NCBI GenBank assembly: GCA_017960855.1
Contig: JAGCYJ010000010.1
Span: 8,098-72,097 of the forward strand
Reading direction: 5' to 3'
Origin: Alphaproteobacteria bacterium
GTDB taxonomy: Bacteria > Pseudomonadota > Alphaproteobacteria > Rs-D84
Length of the DNA stretch: 64,000 bases
Shown here: positions 1,475 through 59,378 of the stretch, one piece after another
Position numbering within the stretch: position 1 is the first letter of the stretch
How the letters are laid out: each line of letters starts with the position of its first letter
Program-made: the position numbers and the translations under genes
Notes under the pieces: generated by a model
Databases searched by the model: none
What the model saw: the letters and a program-made list of their open reading frames with translations, nothing else
Told to the model about the DNA's origin: nothing

Positions 1475-4400
1475 TTACCCTGGTTGTGCCAATGATACCG
1501 GCGAATATGTGTGATTATCATATTTGATATGTAATCCAGGTGTATTCAAATTATCGTCCTGTTCCATATAGAGATAACAGACAACATCATTTTTCTTTAA
1601 TGCCAAAACCGGTGACGGAACCCCCGTCCGATCCGCCAACAAGTGGTATTGATAATTCCCAACATGCAATACCGACATTGCCGAACAATACGCATGGCAT
1701 TTATCGGCATATTCTGGCATACCCGCTTCGGCACAGGTTTGACACGAAACGCGTGTGCTGCCATCATTTGTGGGAACATTGCTATTACTGTATCCCCAAC
1801 TGGATTCAAAGCCGGTGATATATTGTGTCATTCCCGGGAAAGAATCACAACTGGTGGCAAGTTGGGTGCCGGAAAATGCGCTAGACCACATAGCAGAACC
1901 GGATGATGAACCGGGGTGTATTGTGTCTGGGAATGTTGTTGGCGGTATATAGCCGGTCAGGTTGCTGCAACTGTTAAATAAGTACATAAACATACCACTT
2001 GTATTTGTTGCATGCGATGTGTCAATCGTGCTGAACAAATCAGCCGGAATACTGGTAATGCCAGTATTACTAAATGTGCTACTAAACATATAACTTGTAT
2101 TTGTTGCGGACGATGTGTCAACACCGCTAAATAACCCAGCCGGAATACTGGTAATGCCGGTATTATTAAATGTGTTACTAAACATATAACGTGTATTAGT
2201 TGCGGACGATGTGTCAATATCGCTGAATAAATCCGCCGGAATACTGGTGATACCAGTACCTTGAAATGTGTAGTAAAACATAGAACTTGTATTTGTTGCG
2301 GATGATGTGTCAATATCGCTGAATAATCCCGCCGGTATGCTGGTAATGCCGGCATTGTTAAATGTCATATTAAACATACTACTTGTATCGGTTGCGGACG
2401 ATGTGTCAATACCCCTGAACAATTCCGCCGGAATACTGCTCAGGTTGCTGCAATTATAAAATGCATAATAAAACCGTGGTGTATTTCCATTTACGACCGG
2501 TAACATTGCACCCAATGAACCGGAAATTGACGCAACCTTAGCCTGCGTTCCACCGGATGATATATAAAACGATATTGCGGCCACGTTTCCATCAAGGTAT
2601 CCCGTGGCGGTGCCACCAAAGCGAACCGTGTGCGCCCCCGCCGAACCCCATGTACATGTATAGGTGGTGGTGTTCGTTCCGGTACGGGTGATGGTATTAC
2701 CGGAAATGGTGCTGCCCGTGGTGGTGCCACTTTGTGTCAATGTTCCACCATCACCACAATCGGCATAGAATTCACCAGTCGCTGTCATGGTCCAACTTAG
2801 CGTTGTTGCGTCGTTTGTTGTTGTCACAGAAAATTTTGCAGTTTCGCACGATGTGCCGGTGTTCAGATAACCCGAATCACATGTCCAATTACAGGTTCCC
2901 GCAACATACGATGCGTGTTCCGGTAATGTCCCCGCGCATGGCTCACATGAAACCTTGCCATCCCAATCGGATTCAAAGCCGGTGATATATTGTCCAGTTC
3001 CCACCGGGCATACCGTTAAAAGTTGCGTGTTATAAAATGTTCCGGACCACATACTTGTACTGGATGAAGAACCGGGTTGTATTGTGCTGGGGAATGTTGT
3101 TGGCGGTATATAGCCCCCCAGGTTGCTGCAACCGTAAAATGTATACCGAAACATATAAGTTGTATTTGTTGCGGACGATGTGTCAATCGTGCTGAATAAA
3201 TCCGCCGGAATACTGGTCAGACTGCTGCAACCGGTAAATGTTTCGTTAAACATACTAGTTGTATCGGTTGCGGACGATGTGTCAATGCCACTGAACAACC
3301 CAGCTGGGATACTGGTAATGCCGGTACGGGCAAATGTGCTACTAAACATACCACTTGTATTTGTTGCGGACGATGTGTCAATAGTGCTGAACAAATCAGC
3401 CGGGATACTGGTCAAACCGGTACACCCGTCAAATGTGCCCACAAATATATAACTTGTATTTGTTGCGGACGATGTGTCAATCGCGCTGAATAAATCCGCC
3501 GGGATACTGCCCAGGCTGGTGCAATTACGAAATGTATGCCGAAACATATAAGTTGTATTTGTTGCGGACGATATGTCAATCGTGCTGAATAAATCCGCCG
3601 GAATACTGGTCAGACTGCTGCAATTATAAAATGTGTTACTAAACATATCACTTGTATCTGTTGCGGACGATGTGTCAATCGTGCTGAATAAATCCGCCGG
3701 AATACTGGTGATACCAGTACCTTGAAATGTGCTACTAAATATAGAAGTTGTATTTGTTGCGGATGATGTGTCAATCGCGCTGAATAAACCCGCCGGAATA
3801 CTGGTCAGACTGCTGCAATTATAAAATGTGTCACTAAACATAGAACTTATATTTGTTGCGGACGATGTGTCAATCGTGCTGAATAAACCCGCCGGGATAC
3901 TGCCCAGGCTGGTGCAATTACGAAATGTGCCGTTAAACATAGAACTTATATTTGTTGCGGACGATGTGTCAATCGTGCTGAATAATCCCGCCGGGATACT
4001 GGTCAAACTGCTGCAATTATAAAATGTACCCACAAACATAGAACTTATATTTGTTGCGGACGATGTGTCAATCGCGCTGAATAAATCCGCCGGAATACTG
4101 GTCAAACTGCTGCAACCGTAAAATGTATACCGAAACATATAACTTGTATTGGATACGGACGATGTGTTAAGTCCGCTGAACAAATTCGCCGGAATACTGG
4201 TCAGATTGGTGCAATTGTAAAATGTTTGATAAAACCGTGGAATATTTCCATTTACGACCGGGAACATTGCACCCAATGAACCGGAAATTGACGCAACCTT
4301 GCTTTGTGTTCCACCGGATGATTTATAAAATGCTATGGCAGCGGCTGTTGTTGATGTACTGTATCCCGTGGCGGTGCCACCAAAGCGCACAGTATGCACC

Positions 4401-4798
4401 CCCGCCGACCCCCATGTACATGTATAGGTGGTGTTGGATGTCCCGGTGCGGGTGATGGTATTACCGGAAATGGTGCTGCCCGTGGTGGTTCCACTTTGTG
4501 TCAATGTTCCCCCATCGCCACAATCGGCATAAAACGGACCTTTTGCCGTCATGGTCCAACTTAGCGTTGTCGCATCGCTTGTCGTGGTCACACTGAATTT
4601 CGTGGTTTTGCACTGGGTTCCATCGCCCAGGGCGTCTATTTCGTTTGTTGCACATGCCGCCACCGCCGCGCCCGTCGCCCCAGCGACAAACGCGCATGTC
4701 ACAACAACCACACAAATTGCGTGCAAGAATTTTCCAAAAACACCGTTGACGTTCACAATTTGTTCCCCCCGTTTCCTTTTCAAAAAAGAAACCGTCAA
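1475..4798 (-). CDS. Giant secreted/surface repeat protein: 2 x (DCGDG beta-sandwich + DUF285/BspA-type LRR array) + Cys-rich linkers + terminal module
   Basis: Uninterrupted 1107-codon ORF. The ORF start at 4798 is TTG; a GTG at 4756 preceded by GGGGGGAA is an alternative start. Signal peptide ...FVAGATGAAVAA|C. 11 + 5 repeats of about 33 aa of the form IDTSSATN.S.MF..TF..C.SLTSIPA.LFS. Confidence 0.85.
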   Translation of the reverse strand: MTVSFLKRKRGEQIVNVNGVFGKFLHAICVVVVTCAFVAGATGAAVAACATNEIDALGDGTQCKTTKFSVTTTSDATTLSWTMTAKGPFYADCGDGGTLTQSGTTTGSTISGNTITRTGTSNTTYTCTWGSAGVHTVRFGGTATGYSTSTTAAAIAFYKSSGGTQSKVASISGSLGAMFPVVNGNIPRFYQTFYNCTNLTSIPANLFSGLNTSSVSNTSYMFRYTFYGCSSLTSIPADLFSAIDTSSATNISSMFVGTFYNCSSLTSIPAGLFSTIDTSSATNISSMFNGTFRNCTSLGSIPAGLFSTIDTSSATNISSMFSDTFYNCSSLTSIPAGLFSAIDTSSATNTTSIFSSTFQGTGITSIPADLFSTIDTSSATDTSDMFSNTFYNCSSLTSIPADLFSTIDISSATNTTYMFRHTFRNCTSLGSIPADLFSAIDTSSATNTSYIFVGTFDGCTGLTSIPADLFSTIDTSSATNTSGMFSSTFARTGITSIPAGLFSGIDTSSATDTTSMFNETFTGCSSLTSIPADLFSTIDTSSATNTTYMFRYTFYGCSNLGGYIPPTTFPSTIQPGSSSSTSMWSGTFYNTQLLTVCPVGTGQYITGFESDWDGKVSCEPCAGTLPEHASYVAGTCNWTCDSGYLNTGTSCETAKFSVTTTNDATTLSWTMTATGEFYADCGDGGTLTQSGTTTGSTISGNTITRTGTNTTTYTCTWGSAGAHTVRFGGTATGYLDGNVAAISFYISSGGTQAKVASISGSLGAMLPVVNGNTPRFYYAFYNCSNLSSIPAELFRGIDTSSATDTSSMFNMTFNNAGITSIPAGLFSDIDTSSATNTSSMFYYTFQGTGITSIPADLFSDIDTSSATNTRYMFSNTFNNTGITSIPAGLFSGVDTSSATNTSYMFSSTFSNTGITSIPADLFSTIDTSHATNTSGMFMYLFNSCSNLTGYIPPTTFPDTIHPGSSSGSAMWSSAFSGTQLATSCDSFPGMTQYITGFESSWGYSNSNVPTNDGSTRVSCQTCAEAGMPEYADKCHAYCSAMSVLHVGNYQYHLLADRTGVPSPVLALKKNDVVCYLYMEQDDNLNTPGLHIKYDNHTYSPVSLAQPG
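1950..2470 (-). repeat. Tandem 99-nt (33-aa) coding repeats, C-terminal LRR array (5 units)
   Basis: Recurring strings such as ttgttgcggacgatgtgtcaa...gctgaataa.cc.gccgg.atactggt at a 99-nt period. Confidence 0.85.
3100..4230 (-). repeat. Tandem 99-nt (33-aa) coding repeats, N-terminal LRR array (11 units)
   Basis: gatgtgtcaatcg.gctgaataaatccgccgg starts at 3471, 3570 and 3669 (exact 99-nt spacing). Many units are near-identical at the DNA level. Confidence 0.9.
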
Positions 4799-28987: not shown

Positions 28988-29053
28988 AAATACTGGACAA
29001 AACACCTTGTTGTGCTATTACTGGATTCTGGACACTATGACAAGGATGTAATC

Positions 29054-34614: not shown

Positions 34615-36666
34615 ATGCGGCGATTTTTTAGTGCGATTTTAGTGCTGGTGTTAAGCGCGCGCTTTGGCGTGGCGTGGGCTGTTGACACTTGCACTGGCAC
34701 TGACTTTTATGATGATGAATTAGAGGCGTGTACCCCATGCCCAAATGGATATGATTATAATGATGATGATGGTAAAACCGATGTTTCCCAGTGCCAAATA
34801 CAATGTGCCGCCGGAACTTACATTCGCGATGCGGGGGTTTATGGATATATACGATTGGAATATTTGGAAAGCAATGGGGATGCATACATAAATACTGGAT
34901 TCAAACATAACCCCGCGGCTGGTACAATTCGTGGTGAAATTCGTGTCGGTGCGTCACATGATATGCCATCAAATAAAAATATAAATATTTTGGGGAACCA
35001 GACGGGCTCTGCCGGATATTCAGTTGGGTGGGCAGAAAACCAGTTTAAAGTATGGGTTGAAACAACTCATGCTCGTCTGCGGGGGCCTGATCACCCGCTT
35101 GTCCAAGATGGGGTATATGATATTTCATACGAATTTAAGAATGGTGAACAATATTTGACTGACGGAGAAGAAACAGTTCACATGCCGCATGGTGGGGGAC
35201 TCGCGCCAGACAAGCCAATATACTTGTTTGATAATGGTATTCAAGAAATGGATTATAATTTCGTTGGGCGTATATATTGGGTGCGAATATACGAAGATGA
35301 TGTGTTGGTAGCGAATTTCTTGCCGGTGCGTAAAATTGGTACTGATGATGTTGGAATATATGATACAGTGTCTGGAAAATTCTTTGTTGATAGTGGTAAT
35401 GGGAATGGTTTTATATCTGGTAATGATTTAAGTGCTGTTTGCGTTGATGTGGGGGCCGGTTACTATGTCGGCAGTTCGGTTACCAATTTCGGCAGTGAAG
35501 GCGAACGCGAAGCATGCGGCCCCGGAACATATTCTAACAATCCGCGCGCCACCAGTATCGCCACATGTCAACCATGCCCAGGGGCAACATACAACGATGT
35601 GGAAGGTGCGGCGGCGTGTACCCCATGTCCCGAAGGATATACACAGGATACAACAACGACTGGAAACACACAAAAAAGCGATTGCAAAACCGTTTGTCCG
35701 GCGGGAACTTACATGGCGGCCAATATGATTGATGGGCACACCAAATTGGAATATATTGAAACAACCGGAAAACAGTGGGTAAATACGGGGATTATAGCGG
35801 CAAATCTGGTGAATCCAATTATGGAATTTACGGTGCAATATACCAAGGTGGAAAATGGTAAGCAGACCGGTGCCAAGAAAAATAATCTGGATTTTAAGGT
35901 TGGTATTTCCAATGGTGGAATATTCTTGTGTCAGGCCGGTGGTGCCAACACAGAAACAAGATTTGGTACCGCTGATACCGCGAAACATACGTTTATACTG
36001 GATACAGTGGCGGGTACATGTTCCCTGGACGATGATACCAGAACATTGGCTGTTGGCGATTTAACGAATGGTCCTATTTCAATTGGAACGGTGAATAGTC
36101 AATCTGGTAATGCCGGAAAACAAAGAATATATTCTTATCGTTTGATTAGCAATGGGCAAACACTGTTGGACATGGTTCCCGTACGCAACAGCAGCAATGT
36201 CGCCGGTTTGTATGACAAGATCGGACACAGATTTTACCCCAGCAATGGCACAGAACCATTTGTTGAAGGTTCGCTGTTCACTAGTTCTTCTGGGTGTATA
36301 GATGTTGAACCTGGGTATTGGTCGCCCGAAACATATCTGGGGTATGGGCAAACAAATGAACGTAATCAGTGTCCGATTGGAACAACGACGGTTGGTTATG
36401 GTCATGGCGCAGACGAGGCCACCGATTGCGGACAAAAATTAAACATTGCCGGCACATACATATATTCTAAATCAAGTAAACCAACGACACCGTCACTTAA
36501 CATTATGATGGATAGTGGTACAACTTTCTATATCGGTGCCAGTTCTACAAATCATACATTGTCAAAATTGCATTTATCAGATGGTACAACACAATACACG
36601 GCTTATGACGATAGCTTGCTGTTCGGTGAACGCGATTTTACGACTGGCGCACGTATAACGCAGTAA
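34615..36666 (+). CDS. Secreted Cys-rich protein with two LamG/jelly-roll-like modules and the family terminal module
   Basis: Signal peptide MRRFFSAILVLVLSARFGVAWA begins at 34615; the ORF-track start 34432 adds 61 residues with no signal. Modules lie at about 34843-35421 and 35740-36270. The C-terminus ...TVGYGHGADEATDCG..LNI...LHLSDGTTQYTAYDD is shared with 36762..40814. Confidence 0.8.
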   Translation: MRRFFSAILVLVLSARFGVAWAVDTCTGTDFYDDELEACTPCPNGYDYNDDDGKTDVSQCQIQCAAGTYIRDAGVYGYIRLEYLESNGDAYINTGFKHNPAAGTIRGEIRVGASHDMPSNKNINILGNQTGSAGYSVGWAENQFKVWVETTHARLRGPDHPLVQDGVYDISYEFKNGEQYLTDGEETVHMPHGGGLAPDKPIYLFDNGIQEMDYNFVGRIYWVRIYEDDVLVANFLPVRKIGTDDVGIYDTVSGKFFVDSGNGNGFISGNDLSAVCVDVGAGYYVGSSVTNFGSEGEREACGPGTYSNNPRATSIATCQPCPGATYNDVEGAAACTPCPEGYTQDTTTTGNTQKSDCKTVCPAGTYMAANMIDGHTKLEYIETTGKQWVNTGIIAANLVNPIMEFTVQYTKVENGKQTGAKKNNLDFKVGISNGGIFLCQAGGANTETRFGTADTAKHTFILDTVAGTCSLDDDTRTLAVGDLTNGPISIGTVNSQSGNAGKQRIYSYRLISNGQTLLDMVPVRNSSNVAGLYDKIGHRFYPSNGTEPFVEGSLFTSSSGCIDVEPGYWSPETYLGYGQTNERNQCPIGTTTVGYGHGADEATDCGQKLNIAGTYIYSKSSKPTTPSLNIMMDSGTTFYIGASSTNHTLSKLHLSDGTTQYTAYDDSLLFGERDFTTGARITQ

Positions 36667-36761: not shown

Positions 36762-39700
36762 TTGAAACGCACGTTTCTTGCGGTTTTTACGTGTTTGTTT
36801 TGCGCGCTTAATGCGGGCGTGTCTTTTGCGGCAAATAATTGTACGGGCGCAACGTATTATGATGCGGTGAATGATACCTGTATTAACTGTCCCACCGGAT
36901 ATACCGACAATCCAACCGCTGGCAAAACCAGCGCAAGCGAGTGTCAAAGAAGTTGTGCCGCTGGAACATTTATTGCGACCCCCGCATCCGTGGGTTCAAC
37001 CGCCTATACCCGATTAGAATACATTGAAAACCCAAACGGCAAGTATATCAACACCGGATTTTCGCATAGCAAAACCGCGACCACTATTCGTGGTGTATTA
37101 CGTGTCGGCGTATCAACTAATTTGTCAAACAGTTCAAATGTCAATTTCATCGGGAACCAGGCATCCAGTGGCGGTTATTCTGTTGGTTGGAATGCGTATT
37201 TCAAACTTTGGACCCAGTCATCAAACAGCCGACTAGAGGGGCCCGCATATCCAATGACGGCTGGAACTGTTCATGAAATCGAATACACACTGACAAACAC
37301 CACTCGTTCGTTAGTGTATGATGACGGGCGAAGCAAATCTGACACTTTTAGTGGCGGTAAGATCGTGGACCCCGCCACCACCATACACCTTTTTGATGCT
37401 GGTAATATTCAAGCTGCGCGTTCGTTCAAGGGGCGTATTTACGATTTAAAAGTGTATGAAGACGACGTGTTGGTCCATAATTTTGTCGCTGCGCGTCGCA
37501 ACAGCGATGGCAAAATCGGTATGTATGATACAGTAGCCGATGCGTTTTTGACTGGAAACGGCACATTTACCGCTGGACCCGATGCGGGCGCATGTTCGGA
37601 CGTGGGTATCGGGTACTATTCCAATGCGTCTATGACCGATTATGGTTCTACCAGTACCCGCATTATGTGTACAAATGGTCCGATACACACACACTATACC
37701 GCATCCGCCACATCTAATTCGTGTGCGTATGAGTGTGATGATAATTACGTTATGGAAAATGGTGTATGCGAATTTCAGGATAAATTTACCATAACCACAA
37801 CATCCAATGCGACGGAATTGCGGTTTGACATATCCGCGATTGGCACGTACTATGTTGATTGTGGCACCGATGGTGTGTTGACCCAGACCACGTATAGTGG
37901 TGACAATAACGCGGCCGGAACCGTCATCACCCGTACCAATACCACGAAACTGACCTATTCATGTGCTTGGCCGACTGCGGGTGTGCATACGGTAAAGTTT
38001 GCGGGGACAACAACATCGTATAATACAACCGCCACCATACCCGCGATAAGTTTTGCACCTACGGCCAATAAAATTGCGTCAATGACCGGTTCGTTGTCTG
38101 CGATTTTTCCGCAAAAGAGTGCATCAAACGGGCAATACCCGCGTTTTTATCAGACATTCAAGGGGGCAACCAACCTGACCAGTGTTCCGGCGGGATTGTT
38201 TACTGGAATAACCGGCAATGCAAACGCATCAAACATGTTTCGTGAAACATTTTATGGGTGTACCGCGCTTAATGCGATTCCGGCGGGATTGTTTGCCGGT
38301 GTAACAACGGGTGCGACGGATATGTTCCGATCAACATTTCAGGGTTGTACATCATTAACGTCTATTCCAGATGATTTATTCAGTGGCATGACCACCGCGG
38401 CATCGGGCCTGTTTCAGGCTACATTCAAGAATGCGACGCACTTGGCGGGGTATATACCGCCAACGACATTTGCGGGGCTTATTGCGAACACTTCGCCGAC
38501 AGACACTAATATGTGGACCGAAACGTTTAGTGGTACCGCTGTTGCCACAACCTGTCCGACGGGATTGGATGATTACCCGACCGGCTATGAATCCGAATGG
38601 GCGAATCATGTATCGTGTTATGTTGCATGTCCTGATACTCCACCCACGAACAGTGCTTGGCAAGTCATCAATAATACATGCGTATGGTTGTGCAACGCGG
38701 GGTATTACAGCGCGGACAACACATCGTGCACCGCGGTCGACACCGGTTATTATTCTGGTGACGGCGACAACACGCAAACGGCATGTACCAACAAACCGGC
38801 GAACAGCCATTATACCGGTTCGGCGATAACCGACAATTGTCCGTGGCAATGTGACACGGGCTATGGCAGCGATGCCGGCACCTGTCGCGCGTGTACGGCG
38901 AGTGAATTTTTGACCAACGGTGGTATTTGTGTGAACACAAAGTTTACCGTCACAACCACAAATAGTACAAGCGAATTTAAGTTCTTTATGTGGGAACCAA
39001 CTGGAACATTCTATGTCGATTGGGGCGACGGCAACGTTGATACAATTACGCGTACCAATTCGACCGGAAACACATATTCCCATGACTATGCCGCGACCGG
39101 TTCATATACAATTCGATTTGGTGGTGTTGCGACGGGGTATGATGGAAACTCGGCACATACCGCAATAAGTTTTTATGGGCAAACCGGCGGAACCCAGGAT
39201 AAAATCGCATCCGTTACGGGATCGCTGGCTGCGTTGTTTCCAACCCCCAATGATAGTGCGTTGCCGTTTTTCCGTGAAACATTCCGGGGGGCAACAAACC
39301 TGACATCGGTTCCCAATACACTGTTCGATGGCATAACCCAGACCCATGGTCACATGTTTTATCATACATTCGATGGCGCGGGCTTGACCGCGATTCCATC
39401 TGATTTATTCAGTGATGTCCACTCGTTGGGGGTTGGTATGTTTGAATATACATTTGCTAACTGCGCTTCGTTGACCGCGATTCCAAGTGGATTATTTGAT
39501 GATATGACCGCCAGTGGTGCGGTGGACAATATGTTTGAGGGAACATTTACGGGATGTACATCATTGACCACGATACCAGCCGGTTTGTTTGATGATGTTA
39601 TTGCCAGTTCGTCAAATTGGACACGGCTTTCCAGTACCAGTACCGGCGGTGTATTCCGTGATACGTTTAGTGGCTGCACATCATTAACCTCTGTTCCGGC

Positions 39701-40814
39701 GGAACTGTTTAGCGGAATGACAATCAATGGAATACCATATATGTTCGCCAACACATTTAAAAATTGTTCATCATTGGCGACGATACCGACCGGATTATTT
39801 GATGATATTACGACATCAGGGACGGCGTTCAATATGTTTGAATACACATTTGAGGGTTGTACATCATTGAACGCGATACCGTCGGACTTGTTTGATGATG
39901 TTATTAGTGGTGCAGCCAGCGGAACTGACAAAACCGGCTGGTTCAAGGATACATTTAATGGCTGTACGGGATTGACCGCGATACCGGCCGAATTGTTTAG
40001 TGGTATGACCACCGCTGCAGAGAATTTGTTCTATGGCACATTTAATGGTTGCACGAATTTGGCGGGATATATTCCACCAACCACATTTGCGGGGTTAATT
40101 ACGAATGACAGCACGAAAAACACAAATATGTGGGGTAATGCGTTCGTTGGAACAAATTTGGTGACGGTGTGTCCAGCGGGAACGACACAGTATATCACGG
40201 GCTATGAAGGTTCAACAAACGGAACGACCTGGAATGGCAAGGTTTCATGTGAACCATGTGCCGCCGGAACATATAAAGCAACAGCAGGCAACGGTGCGTG
40301 TACCGCGTGCGAAATTGGAACCTATGCCGCTGCTGGTGCGGTGTCTTGTACGGCATGCACAAATACCAAACCTGCAAACAGTTCGTATAGTTCTAACGCT
40401 ACGACAAATGCGTGTTTGTGGTTATGTGATGGGGGGTATTACAGCACGGATAGCGCGTCCTGTACAGAGGTTGGTGCGGGTTGGTATTCCGCTGATGGCG
40501 ACAATACGCGCAGTGCTTGTGCCGCTGGACTTACCACTGTGGGTTATGGGCATGGTGCGGATGAAGTGGCCGATTGTGGTCATGAATTACACCTTGGAGA
40601 TTTTGTCTTTTATACTAAACAAACAAAATCAACAACACCGGCATTGAACATTACTGATGGCACATCTGTTTCATACCTAGGGGCCAGTACAACCAACCAG
40701 AGTTTATCGAAATTGCATATTTCAGATGGAACAACACAATATACTGCGTATGATGACGGATTATTGTATGGGGAACGGAATGCAACAACGGGGCAACGTA
40801 TTACGCAACAATAA
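36762..40814 (+). CDS. Giant secreted mosaic protein (1350 aa): LamG-like module + 2 x (beta-sandwich + DUF285/BspA-type LRRs) + Cys-rich repeats + terminal module
   Basis: TTG start after GGAAAGGGGG. Signal peptide MKRTFLAVFTCLFCALNAGVSFA. KFTITTT..YYVDCGTDG and KFTVTTT..FYVDWGDGN units. CEPCAAGTYKATAGNGACTACEIGTY. Confidence 0.88.
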   Translation: MKRTFLAVFTCLFCALNAGVSFAANNCTGATYYDAVNDTCINCPTGYTDNPTAGKTSASECQRSCAAGTFIATPASVGSTAYTRLEYIENPNGKYINTGFSHSKTATTIRGVLRVGVSTNLSNSSNVNFIGNQASSGGYSVGWNAYFKLWTQSSNSRLEGPAYPMTAGTVHEIEYTLTNTTRSLVYDDGRSKSDTFSGGKIVDPATTIHLFDAGNIQAARSFKGRIYDLKVYEDDVLVHNFVAARRNSDGKIGMYDTVADAFLTGNGTFTAGPDAGACSDVGIGYYSNASMTDYGSTSTRIMCTNGPIHTHYTASATSNSCAYECDDNYVMENGVCEFQDKFTITTTSNATELRFDISAIGTYYVDCGTDGVLTQTTYSGDNNAAGTVITRTNTTKLTYSCAWPTAGVHTVKFAGTTTSYNTTATIPAISFAPTANKIASMTGSLSAIFPQKSASNGQYPRFYQTFKGATNLTSVPAGLFTGITGNANASNMFRETFYGCTALNAIPAGLFAGVTTGATDMFRSTFQGCTSLTSIPDDLFSGMTTAASGLFQATFKNATHLAGYIPPTTFAGLIANTSPTDTNMWTETFSGTAVATTCPTGLDDYPTGYESEWANHVSCYVACPDTPPTNSAWQVINNTCVWLCNAGYYSADNTSCTAVDTGYYSGDGDNTQTACTNKPANSHYTGSAITDNCPWQCDTGYGSDAGTCRACTASEFLTNGGICVNTKFTVTTTNSTSEFKFFMWEPTGTFYVDWGDGNVDTITRTNSTGNTYSHDYAATGSYTIRFGGVATGYDGNSAHTAISFYGQTGGTQDKIASVTGSLAALFPTPNDSALPFFRETFRGATNLTSVPNTLFDGITQTHGHMFYHTFDGAGLTAIPSDLFSDVHSLGVGMFEYTFANCASLTAIPSGLFDDMTASGAVDNMFEGTFTGCTSLTTIPAGLFDDVIASSSNWTRLSSTSTGGVFRDTFSGCTSLTSVPAELFSGMTINGIPYMFANTFKNCSSLATIPTGLFDDITTSGTAFNMFEYTFEGCTSLNAIPSDLFDDVISGAASGTDKTGWFKDTFNGCTGLTAIPAELFSGMTTAAENLFYGTFNGCTNLAGYIPPTTFAGLITNDSTKNTNMWGNAFVGTNLVTVCPAGTTQYITGYEGSTNGTTWNGKVSCEPCAAGTYKATAGNGACTACEIGTYAAAGAVSCTACTNTKPANSSYSSNATTNACLWLCDGGYYSTDSASCTEVGAGWYSADGDNTRSACAAGLTTVGYGHGADEVADCGHELHLGDFVFYTKQTKSTTPALNITDGTSVSYLGASTTNQSLSKLHISDGTTQYTAYDDGLLYGERNATTGQRITQQ

Positions 40815-46023: not shown

Positions 46024-49000
46024 ATGAAGCGCATTTTGTCAATCTTGTTTATGTGCCTTTTTGTGGTGCTGTCGCCGACACGCGCCAGTGCCGCATGCAC
46101 ATCAAGCCAAATTGACGTTTTGGGTGATGGTACCCAATGCGAAACATCCAAGTTTGAATTGACAACAACATCATTGGCAGCAAATACAACATTCACATTT
46201 ACATTGGGGGCATCCGGTACATTCTATGTTGATTGGGGTGATGGCGGTGCGGTTGAAACAATCGCGCGCGACAGTGTAACCGCCACAGATTATACGCATA
46301 CATATACGACCGCCGGGGTATATACTATACGATTCAGTGGTCTTGCAACGGAATATGATGTATCTAGTAATGGATCTACGACAATATCATTCTATAAAGC
46401 GTCTGGCGGATCCCAGGGAAAGATTGCATCAATTTCTGGTAATTTGGCATCAATATTCCCTTATTTGGGATCGGAAAATAATCAAGCACCAAGGTTTTAT
46501 GGAACTTTTCGTGGTGCAACAAATTTGACGTCAATACCTGCGACTTTGTTCAGTGGTATTACCACTGGAGAGGGTGGGATGTATATGTTTGGTATGACAT
46601 TTTATGGTTGTACTGGTTTGACCAGTATACCGGCGACATTGTTTAGTGGTATTACCACTGGTGCAAATAGCATGTTCTCCAATACATTTTCCGGTTGCAC
46701 GGGGTTAACCAGTTTACCTGAGGGATTGTTCAGCAGTATTACTACTGGGGGATATCAAATGTTCTCCAGTACATTTTCCGGTTGCACGGGATTGACTCGT
46801 ATCCCTGCAAGATTATTCAGCGGTCTTACCACCGTGGGTGGTTATATGTTTCAGTTTCTGTTTAATGGTTGTAAAAACTTGGCTGGTGTCATACCACCGG
46901 ATACTTTTGCTGGATTAACTGCTAATGGTGCTCCAACCAATACTTATATATGGACAAGTGCTTTTACGAATACTAAATTGGCGACATCGTGTCCTGCTGG
47001 CACCCATCAGCATTACACCGGATACGAAAGTAAAAGTACTGGGTTGTTTGAGGACAGGGTTTCATGCGCATGTGATGATGGAACGTGGGGTGATGGCAAC
47101 ACGTGTACAGCATGTGCCAATACACACCCGGCGCATTCATCTTATTATGGTCTTGCAACAACTGCCACATGTCCATGGGCGTGTGATGCTGGGTATTATT
47201 GGGATGGTACCGCATGTTCGGTGTGTTCCAACAGTGCCCCCGCCAACAGTACATTCACACCCGGATCGACAACCGCTACATGTCCGTGGACGTGTAACGC
47301 GGGCTATATTACCAATGGCAATTCGTGCGATGCCCCTGCATTCAGCGTGACAACAACATCATTACCATTTGGCGACAAATTTACATTCAGTTTATCTGCG
47401 GTTGGAACGTTTTATGTTAATTGGGGTGATGGCACCGAAGAAACAATCGTTCGCGATAATACAACCAGCACATGGTATACGCATACATATACAACGCCGG
47501 GGGTACATACAATTAATTTTGGTGGTACCGCAACGGCATATAACACATCTACAAGTGTTGCGACAATATTATTCTATAAATCGTCTGATGGGTCCCAGAA
47601 AAAAATTGCATCAATTTCCGGTAATCTGGCAACGATATTTCCATCTTATGGCACGGATTCTGGACAATCACCACGGTTTAATCGAACATTTCGTGAAGCG
47701 ACTAATTTGACATCAGTTCCTGCGACTTTATTCAGTGGTTTCACCCAAGGGACAAATTATATGTTTTCTGAAACATTTTATGGTTGTACTGGTCTGACCA
47801 GTTTGCCAGCGGGATTATTCAGCAGTTTTACCACAGGTGCAACTTATATGTTTAGTGGTACATTTTATGGTTGTAAGGGTCTGACCAGCTTACCAACGGG
47901 GCTGTTTGGCAATATTACTACTACCACAGGTGCAACTTATATGTTTAATAACACATTTTATGGTTGTACGGGTCTGACCAGTTTGCCGACGGGATTATTC
48001 AGCGGTATGACCAGCGGTACAGGTTATATGTTTTACAACACATTCAAGGGTTGTACTGGTCTGACCAGTTTGCCAGCGGGACTATTCAGCAGTTTTACCA
48101 CAGGTGCAAATTATATGTTTAGTAGTACATTTGAAGGTTGTACGGGTCTGACCAGTTTGCCAGCTGATTTGTTTAGTGGTATGACTACTGGGGCACAGAG
48201 TTTGTTCTCTAGTACGTTTAAAGGTTGTACTGGTCTGACCAGTTTGCCGGATGGATTGTTCAGCAGTATTACCACTGGTGCACAATATATGTTTCTTAGT
48301 ACATTTAATGGATGTACTGGTCTAACTAAATTACCGTCAAGATTATTCAGTGGTCTTACCACCACTGGAAGTTATATGTTTAGCAATACATTTAATGGTT
48401 GTACGAATTTAGGGGGGTATATACCACCGGACACTTTCGCGGGGTTAATTGAGAATGGTTCCCCAAGTGCGAGTATGTGGAATTCCACATTTACAAACAC
48501 ACAGTTGTTAACAGAATGTCCCACTGGTACCGAGCAATATATTACCAGATACGAAGGATCCACCGATGGTACCACTTGGAATGGCAAGGTTTCATGCGGT
48601 TGCGAAGCGGGATATTGGGTTGATGGTGCGACGTGCACGGCATGTTCCAACACAATTCCAGCGCATTCATCTTATACCACGGGCGCGACCAATGCCACAT
48701 GTCCGTGGGTGTGTGATTCGGATTATGTTTCCAACGGCACATCATGCGTCGCACCAGCGTTCAGTGTGACAACAACATCACTGAATGCCAATGATACATT
48801 TACATTCAGTTTAACTGCGGTTGGAACATTTTATGTGAATTGGGGTGACGGTACCCAACAAACGATTGTTCGTACTGATACAACCAGCACATGGTATACG
48901 CATACATATTCATCGGCGGGGACATATACGATTAATTTTGGTGGTATTGCAACGTCATACTATCACGCTGGATATCAGGCGGCAATATCGTTTTATAAAT

Positions 49001-52000
49001 CATCCGGCGGATCACAAGATAAAATCGCGTCTGTTTCTGGTAATTTGGCGACAATATTCCCATATTTGGGTTCGGACGCTAGCCAGAGACCAAAGTTTTA
49101 CCAAACATTTCGTGGGGCAACGAATTTAACGTCTATCTCGGCGGGATTGTTCAGCGGTTTTACCATCGGGGGCGGTCAGATGTTCCATGAAACATTTTAT
49201 GGATGTACTGGTCTGACCAGTATTCCGGCGGGATTATTCAGTTCTATTACCACCGCAGCGGGCACTTCGCAGATGTTTTCAAGTACATTTTACGGATGTA
49301 CGGGTTTGACCACTGTTCCGGCGGATTTGTTCGGTGGCATTACAACCGGTGCGGATCATTTGTTTTATGAAACATTCAGGGGATGTACTGGACTGACCAG
49401 CATACCGGCGGGGTTATTCAATAAAGTAACTTCCTCGGCAGATGCAACTTATATGTTTTATAACACATTTTATGGTTGCACGGGTCTGACCAGTTTGCCG
49501 ACGGGATTATTCAACAGTGTTACCACTGGGGCAGAATATTTGTTCCATGGAACATTTAGGGGGTGCACCGGATTGACCAGTATACCGGCGGGGCTATTCA
49601 GCAGTGTTACGACCGGTGCAAATTATATGTTTATGAACACATTTTATGGATGTACAGGCCTGACCAGTTTTCCTGCGGGCTTGTTCAGCGGACTTACCAC
49701 TGCGGGAAATTATATGTTTGCCTACGTATTTCAAGGTTGCACTAATTTGGCGGGCTTTATACCACCAGATGCTTTTGCGGGGCTGATTGCGAATAATTCG
49801 CCAAACACAACCTATATGTGGAGGGACGCGTTTTACAACACTCAATTGCTGACACAATGTCCAGTTGGTTATACGCAGTATATCACTGGGTACGAAGGAT
49901 CTAGTTATACATCCGCTTGGTACAACAGGGTTTCATGTCAACCATGTCCCGCTGGAACGTATAAGGATGTCGCGGGTAACGAAGCGTGCTCGGCATGTGG
50001 TGTTGGAACATATATGTCGGGTACGGGGGCAACGGAATGCGATGCGTGTACCAATGGACCGGCAAACAGCACTTATACCAGTGGTGGTGGATCAACAAAC
50101 ACTTGCGAATGGTCGTGCGATTCTGGAACGATTCCAACGGGTACATCTTGTGATATACCAAAGTTTGAAGTGACAACGACTGAACTGGATGCGGGTACGA
50201 CATTTACATTTACTTTGTCGGCACAAGGGACATTCTATGTTGACTGGGGCGACGGCAGTGCAGTTCAGACAATCACACGTTCCGATACAACCGCCACCGA
50301 TTACAGTCACACATACGAAACAGCTGGTTCATACACGATAAAGTTTAGCAGCAGTGGCATTACGGCTTATAACGAAGATACGACAACCGCAGCAATCAGT
50401 TTTTATAAATCATCTGGTGGATCACAGGGTAAAATAGCATCTCTTTCTGGCTCGTTGGGGGCGTTGTTCCCAACATTGGCAAGCAGCAGTGGTGGCAGAT
50501 ATGCGCGGTTTATCAATACATTCAGGGGTGCCACCAATCTTACTTCATTGCCGTCAACTTTGTTCAGTGGTGTTGCATCCTCAGGAACATATTTATTTTA
50601 TGGAACATTTTATGGTTGTACGGGACTGACCAGTAATGGAATACCGTCAACGCTGTTCAGCAGTGTCACCACTGGTGGTACCAGAACATTTTATGAGACA
50701 TTCCGTGGTTGTACGGGATTGACAACAATACCGTCGGGATTGTTTAGTACCGTCACAACAAATTCTAATTCTTCCTATTTGTATGTTGGAACATTCCGCG
50801 GTTGTACAGGGTTGACGGAAATACCGTCGGGGCTGTTTAGTCGTGTTACCACAACTTCTACTTATATGTTTCAGAATACATTCTATGGTTGTACGGGGTT
50901 GACCACAATACCATCGGGATTGTTTAGCAACATTAATGCTGGTGGGGCGACTTATCTGTTTAACGGAACATTCTATGGTTGTACGGGTCTAACCAGTATT
51001 CCAGAGGGGTTATTCAGCAGAATTACGGCTGGTAAAGATTACATGTTTTCTGAAACATTTCGTGGGTGTACCAATTTGACGGCATTGCCCAGTGGTTTGT
51101 TCAGTAACATTACGACGACCACCAGTGCTCAGTATTTATTCGATAACACGTTTTTGGGGTGCAGTAAATTGGCCACTGTTCCGGCGAATACATTTAGTGG
51201 AATTACATCAGCTTCTGCAGAAGGTGTCTTTCGTGGCACATTCCAAAGTTGTACCAGTTTGACTAGCATAGATGCTGGATTGTTCAGCGGTATTACCAGT
51301 GCGGTACTTAGGACGTTCAATGCTACTTTCCAAGGGGCTGGTCTGACCAGCATACCAGATGGATTATTCAGTGGTATTACTGCGGGGGCGCATAGTATGT
51401 TTTATTCTACATTCCAAGAATGCACATCGTTGACCGCATTGCCACCAAACTTGTTCGCGAATATTACCAGTGGTGTCGGAAATAGTACATTCCGAAGCAC
51501 GTTTTATGGTTGTTCAAATTTGCGCGGATATGTCCCCCCAACGTTCTTTGCGGGGCTTATTGCGAATAATTCGCCGTACACGGGACCAAATGGCATGGCT
51601 ACTTTGTTCCAGGGTACTAGTTTGGCAACATCCTGTCCGGCGGGCACAACACAATATATTACCGGGTACGAAAGTTATTGGACTTCCAAGGTTTCATGTC
51701 AACCATGTCCCGCGGGAACTTATAAGTCGGGTTCAGGCAATGGTGCGTGCTCGGCATGTGGTGTTGGAACATATATGGCGGACACTGGTGCGACCGCATG
51801 TACCGCGTGTACCAACACAATACCAGAAAATGCGGTCTATTCAACCAATGGTGGTGACGGCGGAACAACCAACACATGCGAATGGTCGTGCGATTCGGGA
51901 ACAATTCCCACCGGCACATCGTGTGAAATGCCAAAGTTCAGTGTCACGACAACGTCAATGGCGGCAAATACGGCGTTTTCGTTTAGTTTGTCGGCAACTG

Positions 52001-53721
52001 GAACATTTTATATTGATTGCGGTGATGGTGGAACGTTAAGACAATTTTCCCCATCCAGCACGATTTCCAACAAGACGATAACCCGTGATAGCGCTTTACC
52101 GTCCAAGTATTCATGTACATGGTCATCGGCGGGTGTACATACGGTTCGTTTCGGTGGTGTGGCAACGGGATACGCTGGTGGGGCCACCAGCAACCCCTAT
52201 GCTCCAATATCGTTTTTTTATGATTCATCAACCGGGCGGAATTTTATTGTATCAGTTGACGGTTCGTTGGGTGCGTTATTTCCACAGTTGGGAACAGAAG
52301 ATGGAAAGTACCCAAAGTTTAATGGTACGTTCCAGAGTGCACCAAATTTAACAACAATTCCAGGTACATTGTTCAGTGGTTTAACCGGTGGCGATTATAT
52401 GTTTAGTCACATGTTTAGTGGTTGTTCATCATTGACCACAATTCCAGATAATCTGTTTAGTGGAATTACGACCAGTGGTAAATCTATGTTTAACGGCACG
52501 TTTTCCCACACTGGTATTACCAGTATCCCATCTGGATTATTTGATGGCGATGACCTTACCACCGGGGCATATGGTATGTTTTGGAGTGTGTTTAGTGGTT
52601 GCTCGTCATTGACTACAATACTGGCGGGGTTGTTTAGCAATTTTACCACCGGTGGATATGGTATGTTTCAAGGAGCGTTTTCTGATTGTACGTCGTTAAC
52701 AACAATTCCAGGGGACTTGTTCAGTGGTATTACCACTGGGGAACCCGCTATGTTTTATGTTACATTTAGTGGTTGTACTGGATTAACGGAAATTCCAGAA
52801 AACTTATTTGCCAATATTACCACAATTTCTGCGATAAATGCGCCTGTGTTTTGGGAAACATTTAGCGATTGTACCAATTTGACTGGTTTTATTCCGCCGA
52901 CTTTGTTCGCGGGATTGATTGCCAATGGTTCGCCGAATCCGTATCCGGGTACTATGCGTGATCCATTTTTTAACACAGGGACGTTAACCGAATGTCCGGC
53001 GGGGTATACGCAGTATATAACTGGTTATGAAGATGATTGGGGTGGCAAGGTTTCGTGCGAACTGTGTCCGGCGGGAACATATAAGGATACCGTGGGAAAT
53101 CAGGCATGTTCAGCGTGCCCAGCTGGGACCTATATTGGAACCACGGGGGCGACCGCGTGTACGGCATGTCCTGCGCTGGATACCGGATATGCTTATGCAG
53201 ATGGAACGGGTTGGACCGGGTGGAATCAGTGTTCGGAACAGATGCGCCCAACAAACTGTTACAGCGGATATTTAACCAAAACCGCAAGCAGCGCATCTGC
53301 ATGGGGAACCGCGGTATCTACGCTCTCTGCCGAGCCGGGATACGAAGTGACAGGCAGTGGCGATAATACGGTATGTTCGGAATGTGGTGTTGGTCGCTAT
53401 GGACCGGGTGGAACAACAGCATGTTCATCCTGCCCAACTGGTTTAACCACGGTTGGATATGGTTCGGGCGCGGACGAAGCGGGCGATTGTGGGCGTATAT
53501 TACATGTGAGTAATGGTGTTCTGTACCTGCGTAGTGTAAAAAAGACAACGCCTTCACTGAATGTCAGAATAGGTAATGATGTTTTCTATGGTAATATGAG
53601 TACAGAACAGATGAATATGAGTGGTAGTTGTGAAGATAACCCCGAACTGAAAGTCAATAATGGAGGAACAATATATTGGATACATGACGACAGCAGTCAT
53701 TTTTGTGGGGTGCCGATGTAG
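46024..53721 (+). CDS. Giant secreted/surface mosaic protein (about 2565 aa): 5 x (beta-sandwich + DUF285/BspA-type LRR array + IPPxTFAGL cap) separated by Cys-rich repeats, plus terminal module
   Basis: 7.7-kb uninterrupted ORF (ATG 46024, with TTG at 46021). Signal peptide MKRILSILFMCLFVVLSPTRASA. Mature N-terminus ACTSSQIDVLGDGTQCETSKF parallels the 1475..4798 protein. Confidence 0.9.
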   Translation: MKRILSILFMCLFVVLSPTRASAACTSSQIDVLGDGTQCETSKFELTTTSLAANTTFTFTLGASGTFYVDWGDGGAVETIARDSVTATDYTHTYTTAGVYTIRFSGLATEYDVSSNGSTTISFYKASGGSQGKIASISGNLASIFPYLGSENNQAPRFYGTFRGATNLTSIPATLFSGITTGEGGMYMFGMTFYGCTGLTSIPATLFSGITTGANSMFSNTFSGCTGLTSLPEGLFSSITTGGYQMFSSTFSGCTGLTRIPARLFSGLTTVGGYMFQFLFNGCKNLAGVIPPDTFAGLTANGAPTNTYIWTSAFTNTKLATSCPAGTHQHYTGYESKSTGLFEDRVSCACDDGTWGDGNTCTACANTHPAHSSYYGLATTATCPWACDAGYYWDGTACSVCSNSAPANSTFTPGSTTATCPWTCNAGYITNGNSCDAPAFSVTTTSLPFGDKFTFSLSAVGTFYVNWGDGTEETIVRDNTTSTWYTHTYTTPGVHTINFGGTATAYNTSTSVATILFYKSSDGSQKKIASISGNLATIFPSYGTDSGQSPRFNRTFREATNLTSVPATLFSGFTQGTNYMFSETFYGCTGLTSLPAGLFSSFTTGATYMFSGTFYGCKGLTSLPTGLFGNITTTTGATYMFNNTFYGCTGLTSLPTGLFSGMTSGTGYMFYNTFKGCTGLTSLPAGLFSSFTTGANYMFSSTFEGCTGLTSLPADLFSGMTTGAQSLFSSTFKGCTGLTSLPDGLFSSITTGAQYMFLSTFNGCTGLTKLPSRLFSGLTTTGSYMFSNTFNGCTNLGGYIPPDTFAGLIENGSPSASMWNSTFTNTQLLTECPTGTEQYITRYEGSTDGTTWNGKVSCGCEAGYWVDGATCTACSNTIPAHSSYTTGATNATCPWVCDSDYVSNGTSCVAPAFSVTTTSLNANDTFTFSLTAVGTFYVNWGDGTQQTIVRTDTTSTWYTHTYSSAGTYTINFGGIATSYYHAGYQAAISFYKSSGGSQDKIASVSGNLATIFPYLGSDASQRPKFYQTFRGATNLTSISAGLFSGFTIGGGQMFHETFYGCTGLTSIPAGLFSSITTAAGTSQMFSSTFYGCTGLTTVPADLFGGITTGADHLFYETFRGCTGLTSIPAGLFNKVTSSADATYMFYNTFYGCTGLTSLPTGLFNSVTTGAEYLFHGTFRGCTGLTSIPAGLFSSVTTGANYMFMNTFYGCTGLTSFPAGLFSGLTTAGNYMFAYVFQGCTNLAGFIPPDAFAGLIANNSPNTTYMWRDAFYNTQLLTQCPVGYTQYITGYEGSSYTSAWYNRVSCQPCPAGTYKDVAGNEACSACGVGTYMSGTGATECDACTNGPANSTYTSGGGSTNTCEWSCDSGTIPTGTSCDIPKFEVTTTELDAGTTFTFTLSAQGTFYVDWGDGSAVQTITRSDTTATDYSHTYETAGSYTIKFSSSGITAYNEDTTTAAISFYKSSGGSQGKIASLSGSLGALFPTLASSSGGRYARFINTFRGATNLTSLPSTLFSGVASSGTYLFYGTFYGCTGLTSNGIPSTLFSSVTTGGTRTFYETFRGCTGLTTIPSGLFSTVTTNSNSSYLYVGTFRGCTGLTEIPSGLFSRVTTTSTYMFQNTFYGCTGLTTIPSGLFSNINAGGATYLFNGTFYGCTGLTSIPEGLFSRITAGKDYMFSETFRGCTNLTALPSGLFSNITTTTSAQYLFDNTFLGCSKLATVPANTFSGITSASAEGVFRGTFQSCTSLTSIDAGLFSGITSAVLRTFNATFQGAGLTSIPDGLFSGITAGAHSMFYSTFQECTSLTALPPNLFANITSGVGNSTFRSTFYGCSNLRGYVPPTFFAGLIANNSPYTGPNGMATLFQGTSLATSCPAGTTQYITGYESYWTSKVSCQPCPAGTYKSGSGNGACSACGVGTYMADTGATACTACTNTIPENAVYSTNGGDGGTTNTCEWSCDSGTIPTGTSCEMPKFSVTTTSMAANTAFSFSLSATGTFYIDCGDGGTLRQFSPSSTISNKTITRDSALPSKYSCTWSSAGVHTVRFGGVATGYAGGATSNPYAPISFFYDSSTGRNFIVSVDGSLGALFPQLGTEDGKYPKFNGTFQSAPNLTTIPGTLFSGLTGGDYMFSHMFSGCSSLTTIPDNLFSGITTSGKSMFNGTFSHTGITSIPSGLFDGDDLTTGAYGMFWSVFSGCSSLTTILAGLFSNFTTGGYGMFQGAFSDCTSLTTIPGDLFSGITTGEPAMFYVTFSGCTGLTEIPENLFANITTISAINAPVFWETFSDCTNLTGFIPPTLFAGLIANGSPNPYPGTMRDPFFNTGTLTECPAGYTQYITGYEDDWGGKVSCELCPAGTYKDTVGNQACSACPAGTYIGTTGATACTACPALDTGYAYADGTGWTGWNQCSEQMRPTNCYSGYLTKTASSASAWGTAVSTLSAEPGYEVTGSGDNTVCSECGVGRYGPGGTTACSSCPTGLTTVGYGSGADEAGDCGRILHVSNGVLYLRSVKKTTPSLNVRIGNDVFYGNMSTEQMNMSGSCEDNPELKVNNGGTIYWIHDDSSHFCGVPM
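46150..53054 (+). repeat. Five coding super-repeats (units start at about 46150, 47338, 48757, 50161 and 51934), each containing 4-11 LRRs of about 28-31 aa
   Basis: Each unit opens with (K/A)F(E/S)(L/V)TTT...GTFY(V/I)(D/N)(W/C)GDG. DNA-level near-identity also occurs inside arrays, e.g. about 80 nt at 47782 versus 48049. Confidence 0.9.
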
Positions 53722-53740
53722 TAGTACGTGTTAGTAAAAA

Positions 53741-53765
53741 ACACCGCCCAAACGGACGGTGTTTT
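53741..53765. terminator. Bidirectional terminator between the giant gene and the convergent smpB
   Basis: acaccgcc-caaac-ggacggtgt imperfect stem, with an A-run before and a T-run after. Confidence 0.55.
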
Positions 53766-54236
53766 TTATTTCCCCTTCATAATACGCGATTTGCTGCGTT
53801 CCCATTCGCGCGTTTTAATTGTTTCGCGTTTATCCACGCGGTGCTTACCATGACCAATGCCCAAAAGAACCTTTAATTTGCCCCTGTTGTTAAAGTAAAG
53901 TTTAAGTGGGAATATGGTGGCACCTTTGTCCTGAAGTTGCCCTATCATGCGATTTATTTGTGATCTGTGCAGTAATAATTGACGCGGGCGACGTTCATCA
54001 AAGTTCACAACTCGCGCGGCGGTCGGTAATTTTTGGATTTCAATGCCCGCCAAGAATAAATTATCGCCACGTTTCTGCACAAAACCATCAACAATCGTCA
54101 CCAGCCCATAACGCACAGATTTGATTTCTGCGCCGGTCATAGACAAACCCGCCTCTATTGTGTCTTCAATAGAGTAATTGAACCGCGCTTTGCGGTTTTC
54201 AGAAACTTGTCCAAATTTTATCAAACTGCGTGTCAT
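53766..54236 (-). CDS. smpB: SsrA-binding protein SmpB
   Basis: NRKARFNY.I....EAG....G.EIKS.R, ....LLLH..(E/Q)I, with a basic C-terminal tail. Confidence 0.93.
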   Translation of the reverse strand: MTRSLIKFGQVSENRKARFNYSIEDTIEAGLSMTGAEIKSVRYGLVTIVDGFVQKRGDNLFLAGIEIQKLPTAARVVNFDERRPRQLLLHRSQINRMIGQLQDKGATIFPLKLYFNNRGKLKVLLGIGHGKHRVDKRETIKTREWERSKSRIMKGK

Positions 54237-54237
54237 T

Positions 54238-59352: not shown

Positions 59353-59378
59353 AGACGACATTTTGTCGTCTTTTTTTT
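59353..59378 (+). terminator. Terminator-like hairpin inside the toxin-gene leader (possible attenuator)
   Basis: agacgaca-tttt-gtcgtct followed by T8, lying between the predicted promoter and the ATG at 59423. Confidence 0.4.

Follow-up and report, generated by a model that had tools for sequence, protein, structure and literature searches.

Five genes in a 64,000-nucleotide stretch of Alphaproteobacteria bacterium DNA (GenBank assembly GCA_017960855.1, contig JAGCYJ010000010.1, positions 8,098 to 72,097; here called the window) encode copies of a single homologous protein module, as confirmed by sequence comparison. The genes, named A to E, together span about 18 kb (28% of the window), and each of their translations opens with a hydrophobic signal sequence of the Sec type. 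Structure prediction makes the module an autonomous, compact six-stranded β-domain. Tentatively, and with somewhat less than even confidence, we read it from sequence as a domain for noncovalent surface docking to a conserved component of the cell's own envelope, possibly doubling as an export handle.

Homology of the copies was assessed with a profile, A5, made from 76 module sequences without D or any D-like sequence. Against the 822 six-frame open reading frames (ORFs) of the window, A5 gave exactly five matches, to C (E = 1.7e-37), B (2.1e-33), A (1e-32), E (4.9e-19) and D (4.5e-6), and revealed no sixth copy, the next ORF after D scoring E = 0.33. By these scores, all five copies belong to the family defined by A5, the core of which is summarised as 'CG(R/H)xLHxG..xY..(S/T)xK.TTP(S/A)LN....Y......L(H/K)x.....Y..(Y/H)DD'. 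In pairwise BLASTP, A matched B at 2e-45 and C at 2e-23, and B matched C at 3e-20. An hhalign comparison of N-terminal modules, taken from 24 E-family orthologues, with 45 C-terminal modules from related genomes gave an alignment of 60 columns (probability 95.3%, E = 2e-8), and the two types are bridged by intermediates such as P0066, an N-terminal module of which has the C-terminal-type 'KTTTPALHIRVGDKVWYGNMTT' motif. Copy D is weak in pairwise BLASTP (best E = 0.04) and reached a probability of 35–49% against the first small profiles; against A5 it scored 20.9 bits, with an hhalign probability of 95.5% (E = 1.4e-8, 81 columns). A preliminary description of the window had seen one pattern in these five stretches, C-terminal in four and N-terminal in one, and had staked it on statistical support for the alignment. 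The pattern is borne out, copy E lies directly behind its signal peptide, and the hhalign values for E and D supply that support. Chance or compositional resemblance of Thr/Gly/Tyr-rich tails would agree with the nonsignificant pairwise BLAST results of D and with a nonsignificant internal three-fold repeat, described below. It is refuted by the A5 scores, by 161 database proteins at E ≤ 1e-10 and by a confident alignment-based fold prediction, and we assign it practically no weight.

Copy A (40527..40811, plus strand; 95 amino acids (aa)) forms the extreme C-terminus of gene A (36762..40814, plus strand; 1350 aa). From its translation, Pfam, NCBIfam and hhalign to the E family, this gene encodes a signal peptide, a Cys-rich segment, an unannotated 'LEYIxxxGxYINTG' domain, two units of a PKD-like domain plus BspA/PARCEL-type leucine-rich repeats (LRR), a Cys-rich stalk and the module, whose core 'CGHELHL...YTAYDD' (about 40575–40757) is followed by the subfamily tail 'GLLYGERNATTGQRITQQ'. 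Copy B (36379..36663, plus strand; 95 aa, 64% identity to A) is the extreme C-terminus of gene B (34615..36666, plus strand; 683 aa), where it follows a signal peptide and two copies of the unannotated domain with Ephrin_rec_like Cys repeats between them. The mechanical ORF of gene B begins at TTG 34432; the start compatible with a signal peptide ('MRRFFSAILVLVLSARFGVAWA') is ATG 34615, in agreement with the start chosen in the preliminary description. Copy C (53440..53718, plus strand; 93 aa) is the extreme C-terminus of gene C (46024..53721, plus strand; 2565 aa), which by translation, Pfam and NCBIfam has a signal peptide and five units of a PKD-like domain plus BspA-type LRR (LRR_5, PARCEL) with Cys-rich spacers. 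Its subtype is 'YLRSxKKTTPSLNV...FYGNMST', and it has a 12-residue loop insertion and no GER...RITQ tail. The divergent copy D (1478..1744, minus strand; hidden Markov model (HMM) match 1502–1744) lies at the C-terminus of gene D (1475..4798, minus strand; about 1107 aa, start uncertain), behind a signal peptide and two units of a PKD-like domain plus DUF285/PARCEL repeats. The stretch 1478–1680 earlier given for D spans 203 nucleotides and is out of frame, and 1478–1681 yields the intended 68 residues. Copy E (1031..1234, minus strand) consists of the core only, with four conserved cysteines, and stands right after the signal peptide (about 1220–1300) of gene E (347..1300, minus strand; 317 aa); a Gly/Pro-rich linker and an unannotated domain of about 200 aa common to A and B follow. 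The publicly deposited version of E (P0008, 292 aa) is called from the internal Met26, losing the signal peptide. E-like genes directly adjoin large module carriers both in the window, where E lies beside D, and in loci L010, L011 and L015.

The core common to all types of the module comprises about 60 residues, from about 'CG(R/H)xLH' to 'Y..(Y/H)DD', with the consensus 'CG(R/H)xLHxGdxxvYLRSxKKTTPSLNvkIGnxxFYGNMsT ... kLkvxxxxttYSV(Y/H)DDS'. The pattern first proposed had also included 'TTVGYG.GADE..DCG'; this part holds for A, B and C and is missing from D, from E and from the universal core, and a large subfamily has 'GIxxCxxxLYxPxGMxxxxQCG', a Cys-x-Cys loop, in its place. Judged by its C-x-x-G-x-Y...G....C spacing, 'TTVGYG.GADE..DCG' looks like the last half-repeat of the Cys-rich stalk. 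The Cys loop ahead of the core in most proteins is probably disulfide bonded; in the E-family alignment, the core has four invariant cysteines instead of a preceding loop. Behind the core, the subfamily of A and B has an extra conserved tail of 17 residues, 'LLYGERdFxTgxRIxQ*', and proteins of the large subfamily end exactly with '...YSV(H/Y)DDSM*'.

Residues 1250–1350 of A (40509–40811) were modelled as a monomer by AlphaFold2 with the 76-sequence alignment A5, giving a predicted local distance difference test score (pLDDT) of 91.4 and a predicted template modelling score (pTM) of 0.79. This run superseded those with a single sequence or ten sequences, which were unusable (pLDDT 54). The model contains six predicted strands (26–29, 32–35, 45–49, 54–60, 69–72 and 77–81) and one short helix, and the preceding Cys loop is also confident. 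Three 'L(H/N)x...Y' elements noted earlier correspond in the model to three predicted β-hairpins; as internal repeats they are not detectable, since hhalign self-comparison returned a 5-column 'LHI' match alone. The suggestion that the module is an autonomous domain is supported by the confident monomer model, by the three positions in which it occurs and by the Gly/Pro-rich linker in the E family.

A known generic fold, which would have told against a family-specific module, did not emerge: Foldseek of the pLDDT-91 model against PDB gave no match (best E = 3.1, TMq ≤ 0.25). In a profile search, no PDB sequence scored below E = 0.34, and all 76 module sequences searched against Pfam pointed to no consistent family. 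Weak recurrent matches to Cpn10/GroES, amicyanin and CRABP were rejected as generic similarity of a β-hairpin, 'VKVGD.V.Y.N' (E ≥ 0.01). A well-predicted fold with neither a PDB counterpart nor a Pfam or NCBIfam model deserves a new domain-family entry. Against BFVD, Foldseek returned two uncharacterised phage proteins, both nonsignificant, the better being A0A8S5NPH6 (E = 0.12, probability 0.97, TMq 0.43). These best structural leads, and the fact that heterogeneous, fibre-like proteins share one conserved module at their ends, would suit a folding or oligomerisation nucleus that multimerises its passengers, as the foldon does in fibritin or the intramolecular chaperone at the C-terminus of phage tail spikes. 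We consider this very improbable, given the nonsignificant E-values, a model that is confident as a monomer, passengers (LRR solenoids, PKD and Cys-rich repeats) that need no trimerisation, and the lack of a Ser-Lys autocleavage signature or a Peptidase_S74 match. Moreover, no copy turned up in 50,697 phage genomes, searched by tblastn with E and with the module consensus, or in a scan of IMG/VR viral contigs. A phage origin was rejected on the same searches, together with the nonsignificant BFVD matches (E ≥ 0.12).

The module had been described as private to the five paralogs; it is instead the mark of a lineage-wide family. When 1.84 billion cluster representatives (50% identity) were searched exhaustively by HMM, at least 514 proteins were found at E ≤ 1e-3, 161 of which passed E ≤ 1e-10. 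A scan of GTDB, with one genome per species and two conserved peptides as the query, gave 38 loci, all in metagenome-assembled genomes (MAGs) of Alphaproteobacteria that come from rumen or gut and are uncultured; several of these MAGs bear the name Candidatus Enterousia. Across 41 loci (the window and L001–L040) there were 46 carrier ORFs, with the module always at or near the stop codon, and in 80 further metagenome loci it was C-terminal in 78 of 85 module matches. Several metagenome contigs of 0.6–0.94 Mb have at least three pattern matches each; near-complete contigs with the module include ERZ1026780 NODE-1 (935 kb), OIXQ01000001.1 (851 kb) and Ga0265301_10000004 (595 kb). A word-index protein search had returned 7–9 short metagenome fragments, even with a 52-sequence profile, which reflects its limited sensitivity; the impression of a very rare module that it gave was overturned by the exhaustive search. 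One database protein, P0064 (1282 aa, with acidic tandem repeats), was discarded as a false positive, its 11 matched stretches and about 24 near-zero-score repeats summing up to a match.

Positions were counted from 149 valid best matches, a tail of 15 aa or less defining the C-terminal class. The module lies at the extreme C-terminus in 122 of these representatives (82%), on carriers of up to 7626 aa; it is N-terminal, after the signal peptide, in 15 E-like proteins of about 300 aa, and internal in 12, where a single terminal domain of 100–210 aa follows. One such domain is Cys-rich, about 130 aa long and characterised by 'CWCK...CG(Y/F)(Y/F)CANNMKG...NLY..AGI' (P0099, P0102, P0126, P0138 and P0167, and as 133-aa tails in L043, L061 and L063), and a third type, of about 105 aa, is seen in P0137 and P0142. 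The predominance of the extreme C-terminus, with many proteins ending exactly in '...YSV(H/Y)DDSM*', would be expected of an export signal domain functionally analogous to the C-terminal domain (CTD) of the type IX secretion system (T9SS), read by a dedicated outer-membrane translocon and then perhaps cleaved or covalently attached. Carriers with a Sec signal still have an outer membrane to cross, and in Bacteroidota the same passenger types are generally known to bear T9SS CTDs. We nevertheless judge an export signal unlikely, because N-terminal (15) and internal (12) copies exist, neither HMM nor fold resembles the T9SS CTDs, the host is an alphaproteobacterium and, in the loci examined, the carriers have no linked translocon gene. 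Position-independence and the flexible Gly/Pro linker favour a binding domain over a strictly C-terminal secretion signal.

The module is better conserved than what it is attached to. Over 1712 inter-locus pairs, median identity was 55% for the module versus 33% for the best passenger high-scoring segment pair. At one site the difference is extreme: metagenome contig L041 (8094–9581) is 96% identical in nucleotides to window 53722–55253 from smpB onward, and the encoded proteins SmpB and TatD are 99.4% and 98.8% identical, whereas upstream there is no nucleotide similarity. The carrier beside smpB in L041 is a wholly different gene that has retained the module, followed by an extra 181-aa domain and then by another ORF of 327 aa. 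By sequence, one giant surface-protein gene has been swapped for another between strains, the chromosomal site staying the same. The passenger repertoire turns over and the module is kept.

All carriers with a complete N-terminus begin with a Sec-type signal peptide. A hydrophobic N-terminus was present in 83 of 117 Met-starting representatives, and the remainder resemble truncated gene calls. On A to E, Pfam and NCBIfam cover the passengers only (BspA-type LRR_5, DUF285/PARCEL (TIGR02167), PKD and Ephrin_rec_like), and no model of either database covers the terminal module. As had been proposed, the module is distinct from the LRR parts. BspA-like repeats occur in C (LRR_5, 7e-19; TIGR02167, 6e-54), A (TIGR02167, 1e-15) and D (DUF285, 1e-15; TIGR02167, 6e-10), and B and E have none. 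Across the family, passenger types are LRR_5, DUF285/PARCEL, PKD, Flg_new and Ephrin_rec_like; among 69 carriers scanned, Ephrin_rec_like was found in 10, Flg_new in 9 and TNFR-like repeats in 5, and none contained an enzyme. In other phyla, proteins with the same repeat types carry T9SS CTDs (as Tannerella BspA does) or LPXTG signals at their ends. Many carriers have a cysteine right behind the predicted cleavage site ('..AVAAC', '..ASAAC', '..AYAAC'). It reads like a lipobox in D (4600–4798, 'VAAC'), in L025 and in a few others, and not in A, B, L009 or most carriers; it may instead be the first cysteine of an N-terminal disulfide ('ACTxxxIDVxGDGxxCE').

Many fast-evolving, Sec-exported, adhesin-like proteins of one lineage thus share a conserved and autonomous domain at their ends, for which docking or sorting is the best explanation. 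In the docking model that we tentatively prefer, module-bearing proteins would leave the cytoplasm via Sec; after export, the module would bind noncovalently to an outer-surface component of the same cell, whether outer-membrane protein or surface polymer; and, once bound, it would tether varied passengers (BspA-type LRR, PKD-like domains, Listeria-Bacteroides repeats and Cys-rich stalks) to the cell. The module may also serve as a handle for passage across the outer membrane. The sorting or anchoring role suggested in the preliminary description fits insofar as the module outconserves its passengers and these are Sec-exported and of adhesin type; which of anchoring, sorting and ligand binding it performs is a choice that we infer. 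Several points weigh against docking. Both the surface location of the carriers and docking to a self component are read from sequence, and the present data fit docking to self and binding to a partner or host alike. The core is not consistently basic, with a median pI of 6.4 and a net positive charge in 37% of cores, figures on which a basic module binding lipopolysaccharide (LPS) or peptidoglycan was rejected. Lipobox-like N-termini exist, as in D ('AVAAC'), and in a lipidated carrier the module would be the distal end, not the anchor. No candidate receptor or translocon was found, there being no universal companion family beyond local synteny groups, and Foldseek revealed no known anchor domain that resembles the module in structure.

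A bolder proposal, which we regard as possible but doubtful, is that the module is the address tag of an undescribed Rs-D84 surface-display system, recognised by an outer-membrane receptor or translocon. Such a tag would let these probably partner-dependent bacteria with small genomes export and hold a full repertoire of giant, rapidly exchanged adhesins, and would be an independent proteobacterial counterpart of the T9SS CTD or of dockerin–cohesin. Should the module prove to be a docking or export tag, it would point to a new envelope-sorting route in Proteobacteria and provide a bait for the receptor or translocon. In Rs-D84/Enterousia, which are found widely in the guts of ruminants and other animals, it marks the proteins most likely to mediate partner contact, and the profile allows the complete candidate 'adhesome' of any Rs-D84 genome to be listed.

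A second unannotated domain, beta-rich and about 190–200 aa long ('LEYIxxxGxQYIxTG ... IYxhKhY ... YDxV'), is shared by A, B and E. Its profile was derived from the E family, where it occupies aa 115–317 of E (about 347–958, minus strand); by hhalign with this profile it was located at aa 80–264 of A (about 36999–37553, plus strand; probability 68%, E = 5e-5) and at aa 85–263 and 379–554 of B (plus strand; probability 87%, E = 4e-6). In P0089, P0149, P0184 and L041 it is placed behind the module. The domain has no Pfam match and no PDB sequence match, and a LamG/ConA-like label, suggested by its look, was not assigned as Pfam lends it no support. The company of this domain bears on the idea that the module is a ligand-binding, lectin-like or adhesive tip for a partner or host cell and not for the cell's own envelope. 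A small beta-rich domain on adhesin-like proteins, accompanied by a second one and not tied to one position, would suit such a tip, as would carriers that, from their sequence, might be lipidated at the N-terminus. We hold this to be quite unlikely: adhesin tips are usually variable, whereas the module varies least of all parts, be it between paralogues, species or animal hosts; it always stands behind a Cys-rich stalk, the position of membrane-proximal anchors in comparable proteins; and it matches no lectin family or fold.

Neighbouring genes were compared by ORF clustering over 120 loci. The most frequent neighbour family was seen in 20 of about 120 loci, the recurring neighbours belong to synteny groups only and none of the recurring families has a Pfam match; a conserved neighbour as the partner of the module was rejected, as no family reaches more than 20 loci. 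In 17–19 genome loci (L003–L034), a conserved cluster lies behind the carrier. It comprises secreted Ala/Thr-rich repeat proteins, two or three in tandem ('ATAGYVKGAYNAAIKAINKV...'), together with a coiled-coil protein and a small one that resembles an eight-stranded outer-membrane protein (OMP) and ends in 'RF(R)I' (for example, L025 10755–11822, minus strand; L006 12367–13302, minus strand; and L013 13180–13944, plus strand). None of the cluster proteins has a Pfam match, and by their sequences they could be components of a surface layer or filament.

The window covers part of the chromosome of a diderm bacterium and encodes GroEL, FtsH, QueA, TGT, LysRS, ribosomal protein S4, SmpB and three tRNAs; the diderm envelope follows from its genes for BamD, an OMP beta-barrel protein and MurJ. 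Its housekeeping proteins are 85–98% identical to those of three loci from MAGs named 'Alphaproteobacteria bacterium' (L014, L027 and L036), which assigns the window to the Rs-D84/Enterousia lineage. Members of this lineage are reported to have genomes of less than about 1 Mb and to be without glycolytic steps, the tricarboxylic acid cycle and respiration, and to be probably partner-dependent (PMC12306168). Despite such small genomes, more than a quarter of this window is given over to the five module genes. Elsewhere in the window, two large ORFs (29012–31288, 758 aa; 42489–43886, 465 aa) have neither a signal peptide nor a Pfam match, and the GC content at 30–32 kb, 0.36, is the second lowest in the window. 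A 394-aa ORF (59363–60547) has a C-terminal 'GFSIHGG..PGSAGCID', by eye a candidate catalytic motif of the L,D-transpeptidase/Tlde1 type.

Judged by HMM or by fold, the module is related to none of the sorting domains that the preliminary description had proposed for comparison (T9SS CTD, autotransporter, LysM, SLH and PEP-CTERM). Among the closest in general character is the T9SS CTD of Bacteroidota (Por_Secre_tail/TIGR04183, and CHU_C for type B; for example, in Tannerella forsythia BspA). Like the module, it is a C-terminal beta-domain of about 70–100 aa on Sec-exported surface proteins of diderms, its carriers are heterogeneous, often giant and of BspA-LRR, PKD or repeat type, and it is more conserved than its passengers and a hallmark of one lineage. 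Unlike it, the module is predicted to have six strands in three hairpins and not a seven-stranded Ig-like sandwich, no CTD appeared among PDB fold matches, and the host is an alphaproteobacterium. No match to Por_Secre_tail, TIGR04183 or CHU_C was obtained for the five proteins at E ≤ 0.01 (Pfam, NCBIfam) or for the 76 modules at E ≤ 10 (Pfam). Its N-terminal and internal copies (15 and 12 of 149) depart from the strictly C-terminal position of the CTD. T9SS core components (PorK/L/M/N, SprA/Sov and PorU/V) are absent from the 64-kb window, and no T9SS genes were seen in the 20-kb loci.

The trimeric autotransporter anchor YadA_anchor is likewise a beta-rich C-terminal region of about 70–100 aa on long proteobacterial adhesins. 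The module differs in that its strands, of 4–7 residues, are too short to span a membrane, in being compact as a monomer and in occurring also at the N-terminus; with a length of 60–95 aa, it has no Pfam match to Autotransporter or YadA_anchor, and it ends in 'DDSM' or 'RITQ' without an aromatic beta-signal. Carrier C-termini in general read 'DDSM', 'RITQ(Q)' or 'GVPM'. No PEP-CTERM, LPXTG or GlyGly-CTERM signal was found, the C-terminal 40 residues of A to D being hydrophilic without a transmembrane stretch and without an NCBIfam CTERM match. Nor do the carriers resemble RTX-type substrates of the type I secretion system, as they have Sec-type signal peptides, no RTX repeat match and a module that is predicted to be folded. 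Terminal, autonomous and conserved modules that hold variable surface proteins are also known in SLH, LysM and the LPS-binding N-terminal domain of Caulobacter RsaA, with which the module shares no sequence or fold similarity; it also has no charge signature for polymer binding, and for SLH and LysM, Pfam gave no match and PDB sequences nothing below E = 0.34.

For position-independent docking, the best analogy is the dockerin–cohesin pair of cellulosomes, in which a module of about 60–70 aa, mostly C-terminal and sometimes N-terminal or internal, is found with flanking linkers on many unrelated secreted proteins of one organism. Dockerins are Ca-binding, duplicated, helical and EF-hand-like, whereas the module is predicted to be all-beta, shows no Pfam match to Dockerin_1 with its duplicated Ca-binding loop-helix, and is carried by adhesin-like proteins and not by enzymes; a partner resembling cohesin did not emerge for it. 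Rs-D84 is a lineage in which no such sorting or anchoring system has been described so far. The module is of a known kind, the conserved terminal sorting or anchoring module, and, by its sequence and predicted fold, constitutes a new family outside all those described.

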